A stretch of DNA of 64,000 nt from Parcubacteria group bacterium LiPW_30 (GCA_007375595.1 VMEP01000001.1:340694-404693); one strand, 5' to 3'. Shown: positions 2,721-20,230, counted from the stretch's first letter. The notes: a model not told the origin generated them from the letters alone. Numbers and translations are program-made.

Positions 2721-3392
2721 CTATTCGTCAAAGGCCCGACCTGACATCATGCTGGGATAAACCGAGCGATGGTTCGCCCCATCCCAAGAGATGAACCCGT
2801 TGACTATCAGGTTGGTCACTTCTGCTTGATACATGTGCTCGCAGTGGTTGACGCGCTGTGCCAGAGTTTCCGGTGTGTCGTCGTCTTTGATGCACACTTT
2901 CATTTGGAAGAAGATTGGACCGAGGTCGTACTTCTCCGTAACGAAGTGCATCGAGACCGCAGAGTGTGAAATTTCACCACGGCGGAACGCCGCCATTACC
3001 GCTTCGTGAACACGGTGCCCATAAAGACCAGGGCCACCAAACTCCGGCAGGGGCCCAGGGTGAATATTGAACACCGTTTGCGAGTTGAAGTTCGTTCGCG
3101 GGTCAAGCCCAGTCACGAGCTTCAGCCAGCCAGAGAGAGCAAAAAAATCAGCCCCCGACTCCCTTGCGATACGTTGATACCCTTCAGCGTTCCATGGACC
3201 ACGGAAATGGATGAATGGGATATCAAGCTCTCCGGCCTTTTCCCAGACACCACCATTTTCGTGGTTTGAAACCACTCCGACAATCTTGGCATCAAGTATT
3301 CCTGTGCGCGATGCTTCCACGAGCTTCCTGAAACCACCGCCACCACCGTCTTTTGTGCCCGCCGCAAAAACGAGAGTCTTTGGTTTGCTCAT
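2721..3392 (-). CDS. purN: phosphoribosylglycinamide formyltransferase
   Basis: VFNIHPGPLPEFGG matches the PurN NIHPSLLP motif; Formyl_trans_N-like N-terminus; GC-rich. Confidence 0.8.
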   Translation of the reverse strand: MSKPKTLVFAAGTKDGGGGGFRKLVEASRTGILDAKIVGVVSNHENGGVWEKAGELDIPFIHFRGPWNAEGYQRIARESGADFFALSGWLKLVTGLDPRTNFNSQTVFNIHPGPLPEFGGPGLYGHRVHEAVMAAFRRGEISHSAVSMHFVTEKYDLGPIFFQMKVCIKDDDTPETLAQRVNHCEHMYQAEVTNLIVNGFISWDGANHRSVYPSMMSGRAFDE

Positions 3393-18132: not shown

Positions 18133-18771
18133 ATGGGACAAATCACCATCGACCAATCCCATCAGGTTCTTGCCACTCTGGCTGTGAATACTGACTGGAC
18201 AACGATTGACTTCACGAACTCGGGGCTTCAGGATTTCATCGTTCGCAACCCGAAGGAAGCTGGCAGACAGTTCACGGCGTTCCTCAAGAACGGCGGGAAG
18301 GTCCTCGTCGGCGAACCGAAGGTCATCACCATCAAACGTGGTCGCTTCAATCCAACCGAGTTCATCGGACAGGGCTGGAGCATCATTACGGACGAGACGG
18401 ACACTCGTTCCACGGCGCTCACCGAACTGGACCTCACCAAGATTCAGCAGGTGACGATGCTCAAGAGCGGCGAGACGTACGTGAAGGGCGAGGAGAAGCT
18501 CAGGCGTCTGAAGAAGTCGGGCAACATCCGACTGGACGCCGACGTCTTCCACACGCTGTGGGAGAACCAGCATCTCATCCCCGAGTCGTGGAAGGAGAAG
18601 GTGAACGGGAACACTCGGTTCATCTACTTTGACGGCACGGTCCTTCGGGACTCGGACGGTAGCCGTTACGTTCTGTACCTGTATTGGAGTGACGGTGCGT
18701 GGAACTGGTACGTGGGTTGGCTCGGCAACGACTGGTACGATCACAACCCGTCTGCCGTTCTCGCAAGTTAG
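18133..18771 (+). CDS. hypothetical protein (GC-rich) with a Trp/Tyr-rich C-terminal module
   Basis: SD aaggagaaagaca; C-terminus RYVLYLYWSDGAWNWYVGWLGNDWYDHNPSAVLAS is duplicated at 19128-19253. Confidence 0.5.
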   Translation: MGQITIDQSHQVLATLAVNTDWTTIDFTNSGLQDFIVRNPKEAGRQFTAFLKNGGKVLVGEPKVITIKRGRFNPTEFIGQGWSIITDETDTRSTALTELDLTKIQQVTMLKSGETYVKGEEKLRRLKKSGNIRLDADVFHTLWENQHLIPESWKEKVNGNTRFIYFDGTVLRDSDGSRYVLYLYWSDGAWNWYVGWLGNDWYDHNPSAVLAS

Positions 18772-19111
18772 TACTCGGGCTTTGGTCATTGGCACTTTTT
18801 GGAGCCTTTGACCTTTGTCTTCGGACCCTGCATCTGCTTACACAGATGTGCAGGGTCTTTTCGTATATAAAAATATCTATATAATAATTTGTGGCAGTAG
18901 GTGGATATCAGTGCGTGTTTACGGATGCGTACCACCGAACCCAGTATCCTTATATCCAGAGTATTTGAGATTACGGTTTCAGATAGCGTGGTGTATGTCA
19001 GACACTTCAAAAAATGAAGCTACTTGGTATAGCGTATTAAGGCATTACAATGCCGAAGACAGTGGAACACCCACAGACAACCTTGAGAGTATTCGAGGGG
19101 TGGTGATATGG

Positions 19112-19330
19112 ATGATGTGCTATACAATCCTTCGGAACTCGGACGGTAACCGTTACGTTCTGTACCTGTATTGGAATGACGGTGCGTGGAACTGGAACGT
19201 GAATTGGCTCGACAACGACTGGAACGATAACAACCCGTCTGCCGTTCTCGCAACTCTCTTCATTTCTCTCCGGCTTTCGCTGGAGAGTTTTGTTTTGTGC
19301 GTCTTTAAATTTTTAATATTTGTGTTATAG
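19112..19330 (+). pseudogene. partial duplicate of the C-terminal module of the 18133 gene (fragment or small paralogue)
   Basis: about 125 bp near-identical to 18641-18768, encoding NRYVLYLYWNDGAWNWNVNWLDNDWNDNNPSAVLA; upstream part of the ORF-track reading frame looks non-coding. Confidence 0.3.
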
Positions 19331-19378
19331 TATTTTGGTCTTGAACTGGGCAGTCGCCACGTGAGATAATTGCGCAAT

Positions 19379-19621
19379 ATGTATTACGTATATGTGTTGA
19401 AAGGCCCCAAGCAGTTTTATATAGGTTCCACCAACGATTTAAAAAGGAGATTTGCCGAACATCAATCTAATAAGTCTCTTTCGACGAAAAATCGTGGACC
19501 GTGGAGACTTGTATATTACGAAGCGTCTATATCAAAATCTGACACTTTGATTCGAGAGAATTATTTAAAAACTGCTTGGGGCAGACGATACTTAAAAAAT
19601 CGTATAAAAAATAGTGCATAG
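19379..19621 (+). CDS. small GIY-YIG nuclease-superfamily protein (UPF0213/YhbQ-like) nested in the rnpB P3 loop
   Basis: MYYVYVLKG...FYIGSTNDLKRRFAEHQ...WRLVYYE = GIY-YIG catalytic-domain signature; ORF exactly bounded by the 13-bp inverted repeats that form P3. Confidence 0.75.
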   Translation: MYYVYVLKGPKQFYIGSTNDLKRRFAEHQSNKSLSTKNRGPWRLVYYEASISKSDTLIRENYLKTAWGRRYLKNRIKNSA

Positions 19622-19698
19622 TTATCTCACGTGGAGGAAAGTCCGAACACTTCCGGTCTAACCTTTGGGCGACCGGAGAAGGGTAGCGGGTAACGCCC

Positions 19699-19760
19699 GT
19701 CGTCCAGCACTTATTTTGTAGTTTGGAAACTTCTAAGTTGCAAAATAAGTGCTGGATAGA
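19699..19760 (+). repeat. 62-nt hairpin repeat copy 1 (in rnpB P12 position)
   Basis: gtcgtccagcacttattttgtagtttggaaacttctaagttgcaaaataagtgctggataga; 15-bp perfect stem. Confidence 0.7.
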
Positions 19761-20010
19761 GGTGCGAGCAGTGACGTCGATGCCGAAAGGCTAGACCTCC
19801 CACGTGGAGGAATCCCATAGAAATATGGGAGTGAAACGGCTAAATCCTTACTTAAGTGCAAGGCCGTGCCCCGTGGGATAAAAGATTCCGATTTTATTAA
19901 TAATACCCTGTTAATTTACAGTTTCAGTATTGTTACGTAGTTCGGAATTTGTTATCCCATGGGGAGTGCCGCTTGAGCCCGTGAGTAATCACGGGCCTAG
20001 ATAAATGACT

Positions 20011-20072
20011 GTCGTCCAGCACTTATTTTGTCATTTGGAATCTTCTAAGTTGCAAAATAAGTGCTGGATACA
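20011..20072 (+). repeat. 62-nt hairpin repeat copy 2 (between rnpB P2 3' and P4 3' strands)
   Basis: copy 1 and copy 2 differ only at about 4 loop positions. Confidence 0.7.
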
Positions 20073-20100
20073 GAATTCGGCTTATAAGTTCAGGACAAGC

Positions 20101-20130
20101 AAAAAAGCCCTAATATTTAGGGCTTTTTTG
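20101..20130 (+). terminator. Rho-independent terminator of rnpB
   Basis: aaaaaagccctaatatttagggcttttttg. Confidence 0.65.
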
Positions 20131-20230
20131 CTTGTCCACTTTTTATCAACCGATAAAATTGTGTGTTATTAGAAATTTCTTATATAATACGGAGCACTTA
20201 ATTAATAAATTTTTAACAAACTTTCATTTC

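Follow-up and report, generated by a model that had tools for sequence, protein, structure and literature searches.

Two near-identical hairpins lie inside rnpB, the RNase P RNA gene of the window (the whole 64-kb stretch of DNA that was analysed), and they are probably copies, without the ORF, of a selfish element in which a hairpin carries a GIY-YIG gene; the ends of peripheral helices would tolerate them. Their conserved stem, CCAGCACUUAUUU/AAAUAAGUGCUGG, is common to several phyla, and the full form of the hairpin holds a GIY-YIG gene of about 77–80 aa in its loop. The host gene, the two copies and the hairpin that follows the gene are located as follows.

19340-20094, + strand: rnpB, type-A RNase P RNA of bacteria, which four inserted modules bring to about 755 nt
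19340-19347 paired with 20087-20094, + strand: P1 of rnpB, which appears in the whole-gene fold
19703-19756, + strand: hairpin copy 1, a 54-nt element TCCAGCAC..GTGCTGGA that extends P12 and sits in the 62-mer 19699-19760
20015-20068, + strand: hairpin copy 2, a 54-nt element that fills the P19 site and sits in the 62-mer 20011-20072
20097-20137, + strand: putative terminator-like hairpin AAAAAAGCCCTAATATTTAGGGCTTTTTT (inverted repeat I2), read from the sequence

The window rnpB has the class A core motifs GAGGAAAGTCCG and ACAGAATTCGGCTTA and the P1 and P2 pairings; its P4 strands, with the conserved regions GAGGAAAGUCC ... ACAGAAnnCGGCUUA, were located at about 19634-19645, by reading the sequence, and at 20070-20084. 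The fold of the whole gene recovered P1, P3 and the local hairpins. The gene matched RF00010 with 50.7 bits (E = 2e-14), below the gathering score of 100 bits, and this low score was attributed to the insertions, because an insertion-poor close relative (L063) scored 104.3 bits and L121 scored 129.3 bits. Copy 1 lies directly 3' of J11/12 (GGUAACGCC); it follows GGGTAACGCCC and is therefore P12, as the earlier note on this DNA had proposed. Copy 2 is placed between GACTGTC, the P2 3' strand, and ACAGAA, the P4 3' strand, where the same note had put it, but the site is P19 and not J18/2 as named there. By definition, P19 replaces the 4-nt R19 linker of E. coli (PMC9945441, PMC12974513). The terminator-like hairpin directly 3' of rnpB is kept in the relatives L062 to L064. 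Upstream of rnpB, the adjacent ORFs 18133-18771 and 18815-19330 have a common C-terminal block, RYVLYLYW(S/N)DGAWNW..NDW..NPSAVLA; the former has no Pfam match, the G+C content of this two-ORF region (0.475) is above that of its surroundings, and L158 has a 157-aa ORF at the matching place.

The 62-mers are identical at 58 of 62 positions, and the four mismatches are at positions 22, 23, 31 and 61. The element proper was taken as 54 nt, bounded by TCCAGC and GCTGGA, since the flanks GTCG (5') and TA (3') pre-exist at both sites in element-free relatives; within these boundaries the copies differ at three positions, all apical. Each copy has a perfect Watson-Crick stem of 16 bp (TCCAGCACTTATTTTG/CAAAATAAGTGCTGGA), which becomes a hairpin of about 26 bp once G.U pairs are counted, with 26 consecutive pairs in copy 1. 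The fold energy was −34.2 kcal/mol for both copies, with z values of −9.9 and −8.8 against shuffled sequences, and each formed a local hairpin in the fold of the whole gene (757 nt). The identity and the strong folds bear out the original description of two near-identical hairpins inside rnpB. A third copy of the 16-mer arm was not found within the 64-kb window, for which the chance expectation is 0.84 matches with up to three mismatches. The suggestion that the two hairpins form a functional tertiary pair was not supported: their loops, AACU and AUCU, are non-complementary, which speaks against a kissing pair, and close relatives lack both hairpins. Long-range pairing of arm 1 with arm 2 (inverted repeat I1) was missing from the minimum-energy fold of the whole gene, in which the hairpins fold locally. 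An assembly artefact was rejected as well, because the same rnpB architectures were seen in independent assemblies (L044 = L111 and L019 = L080) and the GIY-YIG protein of the window, described below, is on record from three sources.

Relatives were retrieved by alignment of the TPR-containing membrane protein encoded downstream of rnpB. The search gave 80 metagenomic loci, and rnpB adjoins the gene in 62 of them, a synteny of related Patescibacteria. By identity of the TPR protein, the nearest relatives were L062 (88%) and L063/L064 (87%), and their rnpB cores were 96.9% (L062) and 91.4% (L063) identical to that of the window. P12 in L062, L063/64 and L158 is 18 nt long with a GCAA loop and no element; the site reads GTCGTCC-GCAA-GGATAGAGG in L062 and GTCCGGA-GCAA-TCCGAGAGG in L063/64, and in the window AGCAC..GTGCT replaces the GCAA loop. 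At P19, the stretch bounded by GTCG and (T)ACAGAA is filled by the CCAGCAC hairpin in the window, by a CCCCGTGGGATAA hairpin of about 105 nt in L062, and by a 47-nt CCCCGTGAGATAGG hairpin in L063/64 and L158. The change is thus a cassette-like replacement, of a GCAA loop at P12 and of a whole hairpin at P19, between the unchanged flanks GTCG..TA. Comparison of filled and empty sites detected no target-site duplication at P12 or P19, nor any direct repeat there. The insertions are not conserved helices, as L062, L063/64 and L158 are without either of them, and the alignments place the gain of the P12 and P19 copies of the window later than its divergence from the nearest relatives sampled.

The pattern CCAGCACTTATTT-N(16-40)-AAATAAGTGCTGG, an exact 13-bp stem, was then scanned in one genome per species. 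It was found at 61 loci, spread over 35 genomes and five phyla, the carriers being Omnitrophota, Planctomycetota, Patescibacteria, Chloroflexota and Desulfonatronospira; for a pattern with 26 specified bases, we estimate far fewer than one match by chance. Copy number reached 14 loci in one Planctomycetes MAG and five in one Omnitrophota MAG; in related Patescibacteria the exact stem was present only 2–3 times, and in the window it is confined to rnpB. The 61 loci are mostly intergenic, beside unrelated housekeeping genes (pilB/pilT, nrdJ, groEL, aspC and others), with no recurring protein family among the neighbours. Outside Patescibacteria the copies are mostly intergenic and occur in both orientations with freely varying loops, and the Omnitrophota and Planctomycetota copies form the end of a palindrome, about 120–130 nt long, that has further conserved boxes. 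Changes in the stem are compensatory at positions 6, 8, 9 and 10 (for example, CTTATTT/AAATAAG versus CTAATTT/AAATTAG). These results support the earlier idea of a small mobile hairpin element, which is dispersed across phyla and not conserved in relatives; the outcome that the earlier note had named as refuting it was not observed.

Several other identities of the hairpin were considered and rejected. The 61 loci carry no rRNA signature motifs, and no shared neighbour gene, either a transposase or a regulated gene, lies beside them. Many flanks read ..AAC|..|GTT.., which prompted a comparison with integron attC sites, but there are no arrays, the stems are perfect without extrahelical bases, and the flanks fit RYYYAAC/GTTRRRY inconsistently. 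The stem resembles the Haemophilus uptake sequence AAGTGCGGT, but no single half-sites lie outside the hairpins in the window. Rfam had no match to the hairpin or to its long palindromic form; hits to microRNA precursors were spurious and caused by the AAGUGCU string. No match was found in 2.9 million viral contigs, and a literature search with the stem sequence returned only an unrelated coffee primer. Intergenic copies in Patescibacteria (L012, L014, L020, L025 and L037) lie inside a longer palindrome with the outer arms GAGCGAAGCGA../..TCGCTTCGCTC; the copy in L037, as judged from flanks translated by eye, lies in a ribosomal protein operon, where it separates rplB from rpsS.

The closest relative of each window copy is the other window copy (49/52 identical), and the next-closest, 88% identical, is an intergenic copy in another Patescibacterium (L025). 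The mutual closeness could come from ordinary helix expansion followed by concerted evolution, in which a helix enlarged in place and was then transferred to the other site by gene conversion or template switching between the two palindromes, without any mobile element. The flanks GTCG..TA, pre-existing at both sites, could guide such conversion, target-site duplications are lacking, and several relatives have one module twice per rnpB. We regard this explanation as unlikely, because the 13-bp stem is found in unrelated intergenic contexts and in other phyla, where it encloses GIY-YIG genes, and because of the intergenic copy in L025. In addition, the P12 extension came as a block and not by gradual growth, since it is missing from the closest relatives. 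Recent gene conversion within the gene, which the earlier note had raised, is the likeliest origin of the second copy in view of 49/52 against 88% identity, but it does not account for the source of the hairpin.

The other two inserted modules of the window rnpB are a GIY-YIG element and a hairpin with arms of that element's type.

19357-19634, + strand: hairpin-borne GIY-YIG element that replaces P3, with a 30-nt inverted repeat
19357-19386 and 19605-19634, + strand: arms of the P3 element, CCACGTGAGATAA.. and ..TTATCTCACGTGG
19379-19621, + strand: GIY-YIG nuclease ORF of 80 aa in the loop of P3 (Pfam PF01541, E = 1.8e-13)
19869-19964, + strand: P16/17 extension hairpin CCCCGTGGGATAA..TTATCCCATGGGG, 96 nt, ORF-less, with arms of the GIY-YIG-element type

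The P3 element folds with z = −9.7. The closest solved structure to its protein is UPF0213 protein BH0048 (1zg2), and the UPF0213 family is related to the structure-specific nuclease Slx1. The protein of 80 aa consists of the catalytic domain only, with no separate DNA-binding domain, and its score against TIGR01453 was 25.8 bits, below the cut-off of 56. No intron family was found around the window rnpB in the Rfam search at E-values up to 10. The protein has 388 homologues in Paceibacteria-type CPR bacteria, many of them also 80 aa long and 65–90% identical. A GIY-YIG element with CCCCGTGAGATAA arms occupies P3 of rnpB in 5–6 other Patescibacteria loci (L107, L146, L157, L158 and L160) and intergenic sites apart from rnpB in L142 and L147; L107 carries it though its rnpB-neighbour protein is only 39% identical. 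The P3 of L063/64 is short and without the ORF. The arms of the P16/17 hairpin are one compensated pair away from those of the GIY-YIG element. This hairpin is missing from L063/64, whose P15-17 segment is 25 nt, but P19 of L062 and P16/17 of L158 each have a hairpin of the same CCCCGTGGGATAA type, and L160 has two. ORF-less hairpins with the arms of the CCCCGTGAGATAA element are found at P19 of L063/64 and L158 and in P15-17 of L157. Two arm families therefore exist, each found both with and without the GIY-YIG ORF.

ORF-bearing forms of the hairpin were found in Omnitrophota. In L049, the arms ACCCAGCACTAATTTTT/AAAAATTAGTGCTGGGT enclose a 77-aa GIY-YIG ORF (PF01541, E = 6.8e-10), and an ORF-less copy adjoins it; the protein has 81 homologues, the named ones all from Omnitrophota. 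At further Omnitrophota loci the GIY-YIG ORF is bracketed by CCAGCACTWATTT arms in five cases out of five, in five different neighbourhoods, so that the arms of this hairpin family enclose a GIY-YIG gene of about 77 aa in all six Omnitrophota loci examined. The stop codon of the Omnitrophota ORF is supplied by the 3' arm. An ORF-bearing CCAGCAC element was not found in a Patescibacterium, and the GIY-YIG gene of the window has different arms. The ORF-less hairpins may be derivatives of the ORF-bearing form, or they may be landing sites of the ORF.

The coding sequences of these elements also contain internal helices. In the window, a perfect 15-bp helix (GCCCCAAGCAGTTTT/AAAACTGCTTGGGGC, 19404-19418/19568-19582) joins the codons for GPKQFY to the codons for KTAWG, and it is retained in the homologous elements of L107, L142, L146 and L147. 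The Omnitrophota MAG locus L038 carries an unrelated GIY-YIG element (3073-3350; PF01541, E = 2.6e-17) with yet other arms, CCCCGTTAGAGACAGAAA, and a different perfect 15-bp helix (3163-3177/3322-3336); it is placed between an apparent leuC and leuD, from flanks translated by eye, and its 5' arm contains the apparent leuC stop codon. From the folds of the GIY-YIG elements, with z values of −4 to −10, the mRNA itself is predicted to be a long structured hairpin.

The peripheral helices of about 45 related rnpB genes, from the loci retrieved via the TPR protein, were surveyed for such cassettes. P12 is usually a segment of 18 nt, and few genes besides that of the window have an expanded one. P19 is missing from some genes and reaches about 235 nt in others, and the P18 segment and the return strand are of near-constant length. 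The lengths of the variable segments were as follows.

P2 3' strand and P19 segment: 11 to 245 nt (11 nt when P19 is absent; 245 nt includes the P2 3' strand)
P5-P11 segment: 28 to 215 nt among the approximately 45 genes
P15-17 segment: mostly 24 to 202 nt among the approximately 45 genes

Three modules recur in these genes, namely CCAGC-type hairpins, CCCCGTG(A/G)GATAA hairpins and a composite module of about 130 nt (GCCAATTTTGTTCACC...GGGCAAAATCGGT), which is present in up to three copies per rnpB. In the Patescibacteria lineage of the window, this hairpin family and two or three others occupy the tips of peripheral rnpB helices, namely P3, the site after P5, P12, P13/14, P16/17 and P19. Different lineages carry different cassettes at different helices, often two per gene. 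L044 has cassettes in the P3 region, after P5 and at P19, with one module doubled (after P5 and at P19), and L019 has them at P3, after P5 and at P19. Other modules are doubled in L076 (after P5 and at P19) and in L160 (after P5 and in the P13/14 region), and the rnpB of an Omnitrophota MAG (L004) has two copies, in the P13 region and at P19.

The composite module is built of GCCAATTTTGTTCACCACAGGTGAATACAAAATTGAGCGTC, a variable hairpin and CTCGATTTTGCACCACCTCTGGTGGGCAAAATCGGT, and it was seen at five different rnpB helices: at P19 in L066, L067, L072-L074, L077, L078, L088 and L098, in P5-11 in L019, L088 and L098, at P12 and P15-17 in L079, and at P3 in L044. Rfam has no counterpart to it. 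The window rnpB also contains a 15-nt direct repeat (TCTCACGTGGAGGAA/TCCCACGTGGAGGAA) at 19625-19639 and 19798-19812, through which the P3 3' arm/P4 junction is similar to part of the S domain; it may be due to chance, or it may be another trace of cassette exchange.

All 27 detections of CCAGC-type hairpins in Patescibacteria fell inside 30.5 kb of rnpB regions; they represent 16 distinct hairpins in 10 of 39 non-redundant regions, and none was found in the 308 kb flanking those regions. Furthermore, G.U pairs extend the CCAGC-type stems on the sense strand only. The concentration in rnpB could reflect targeting of a conserved gene, survival where the hairpin is harmless, or a real contribution to the RNA, and the lengthening by G.U pairs could mean that the RNA itself is under selection, or that the hairpins serve RNase P, rather than pure selfishness. 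Both observations would suit the recruitment of the hairpin into RNase P RNA of these lineages as a functional module, either as a protein-binding site or as a stabilising arm for lost tertiary contacts, and so would the conservation of the stem sequence across phyla and the two copies in the Omnitrophota rnpB. This possibility appears quite improbable to us. Genes with 91–97% identical cores are without the hairpins, the position shifts between lineages, the cassettes swap with unrelated hairpins, and the copies outside Patescibacteria are, as described above, mostly intergenic in either orientation with variable loops. An essential role is disfavoured because the hairpins are sporadic among near-identical rnpB genes.

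The long perfect duplexes of 16–26 bp at helix tips of a structural RNA also recall the intervening sequences of rRNA. If the hairpins were of that type, RNase III would cut them out and leave a fragmented but functional RNase P RNA. In anatomy they are like the intervening sequences of 23S rRNA and the short uncharacterised inserts of CPR rRNA (PMC11270868), and the explanation concerns the fate of the insert, so it is compatible with a selfish element. We give it little credence. To our knowledge, there is no report of a bacterial RNase P RNA that is fragmented.

For the selfish hairpin element, the likeliest history is one arrival followed by copying between sites, because the window copies are each other's closest relatives. 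A copy elsewhere in a genome would have given rise to the first one in rnpB (the intergenic copy in L025 is the nearest known), and the second site would then have been filled from the first via break repair or gene conversion. Such copying may have been guided by the self-complementary arms and the short common flanks. A possible trigger is the GIY-YIG nuclease cutting hairpin or cruciform DNA; a break at the hairpin could plausibly be repaired from another copy with the arms as homology. After insertion, the perfect palindrome would fold on itself and lengthen the host helix, the catalytic core would remain intact, and selection would tolerate the change. We know of no strand-transfer activity and no transposition mechanism for an 80-aa GIY-YIG domain alone.

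More tentatively, and short of calling it probable, we propose that these hairpins represent an undescribed class of selfish elements, that is, long hairpins with a conserved stem and a GIY-YIG gene of about 80 aa, which have non-autonomous ORF-less derivatives, cross phyla (Omnitrophota, Planctomycetota and Patescibacteria) and use the peripheral helices of RNase P RNA as a preferred safe harbour. If so, they would be a GIY-YIG counterpart of REPIN-RAYT, and rnpB would be a mosaic of exchangeable hairpin cassettes. Literature searches on GIY-YIG with hairpins or REPINs, and on insertions in Patescibacteria rnpB, returned no description of the element, and we found none published for the hairpin family, its link to GIY-YIG genes or cassette exchange within rnpB.

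These observations bear on several questions. Peripheral helices of rnpB are exchanged whole for dispersed palindromes, even twice per gene, and P3 hosts an intact nuclease gene; such genes can serve as natural experiments to learn where RNase P RNA accommodates large inserts. Minimal GIY-YIG proteins are a large and mostly uncharacterised group, annotated just as 'GIY-YIG nuclease family protein', and the hairpin family gives a concrete handle on how they relate to palindromic DNA. CPR RNase P RNAs were described with large helix extensions and sub-threshold Rfam scores (PMC8172020), and cassette insertions explain why covariance models miss many CPR rnpB genes. The rRNA genes of CPR bacteria contain short uncharacterised insertions at stem-loop tips, and GIY-YIG-encoding insertions that match neither group I nor group II introns (PMC11270868); these unexplained insertions are now linked to a recognisable element.

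Among known systems, REPIN-RAYT consists of REP doublets that form hairpins and are mobilised by a flanked single-copy Y1 transposase. The likeness lies in short, palindromic, non-autonomous intergenic repeats, in a protein gene bracketed by the same arms, and in copies that resemble each other within one genome. However, the enclosed gene here is a minimal GIY-YIG nuclease (PF01541) and not an HUH/Y1 (IS200/IS605-like) transposase, the arms cross phyla, the copies colonise a ribozyme gene, and mobilisation by the GIY-YIG protein is hypothetical. MITEs and the Correia, RPE and ERIC elements are likewise small, have terminal inverted repeats and do not destroy genes; RPEs insert into genes for proteins and RNAs without destroying them. 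Their multiple dispersed copies may be a further likeness, given up to 14 hairpin loci in one MAG but only 2–3 exact-stem copies in related Patescibacteria. The hairpins have terminal inverted repeats, the whole element being palindromic with a 16-bp perfect stem, but the inner stem and not the outer ends is most conserved. They are not classical MITEs, because neither a target-site duplication, at the two sites examined, nor an encoded or related transposase was found. The term MITE-like used in the earlier note thus describes behaviour and not family membership, because the ORF-bearing relatives encode only a GIY-YIG nuclease domain of 77–80 aa.

GIY-YIG homing endonuclease genes have the PF01541 catalytic domain and reside in a highly conserved RNA gene, as the P3 element does. 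They differ in that the protein here is about 80 aa without a DNA-binding domain, no group I or II intron matched in Rfam, and the ORF takes up the loop of a long hairpin whose 3' arm gives the stop codon. UPF0213/YhbQ/Slx1-type nucleases are also similar, a UPF0213 protein being the closest solved structure. The intervening sequences of 23S rRNA, at helices 25 and 45, some with an S23p/four-helix-bundle ORF, are also hairpins that extend helix ends of an essential structural RNA; like the cassettes described here, they occur sporadically in close relatives, and a small ORF is present in some. Unlike those sequences and the CPR rRNA insertions, the present ones are hosted by rnpB, and several cassette families swap among at least five helices. 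P19 of bacterial RNase P RNA is variable in length, being gained and lost, and both window copies lie exactly at the variable helices P12 and P19. The hairpins differ from the extensions of CPR RNase P RNAs (PMC8172020) in being copies of one dispersed family, present twice per gene and not in the nearest relatives.
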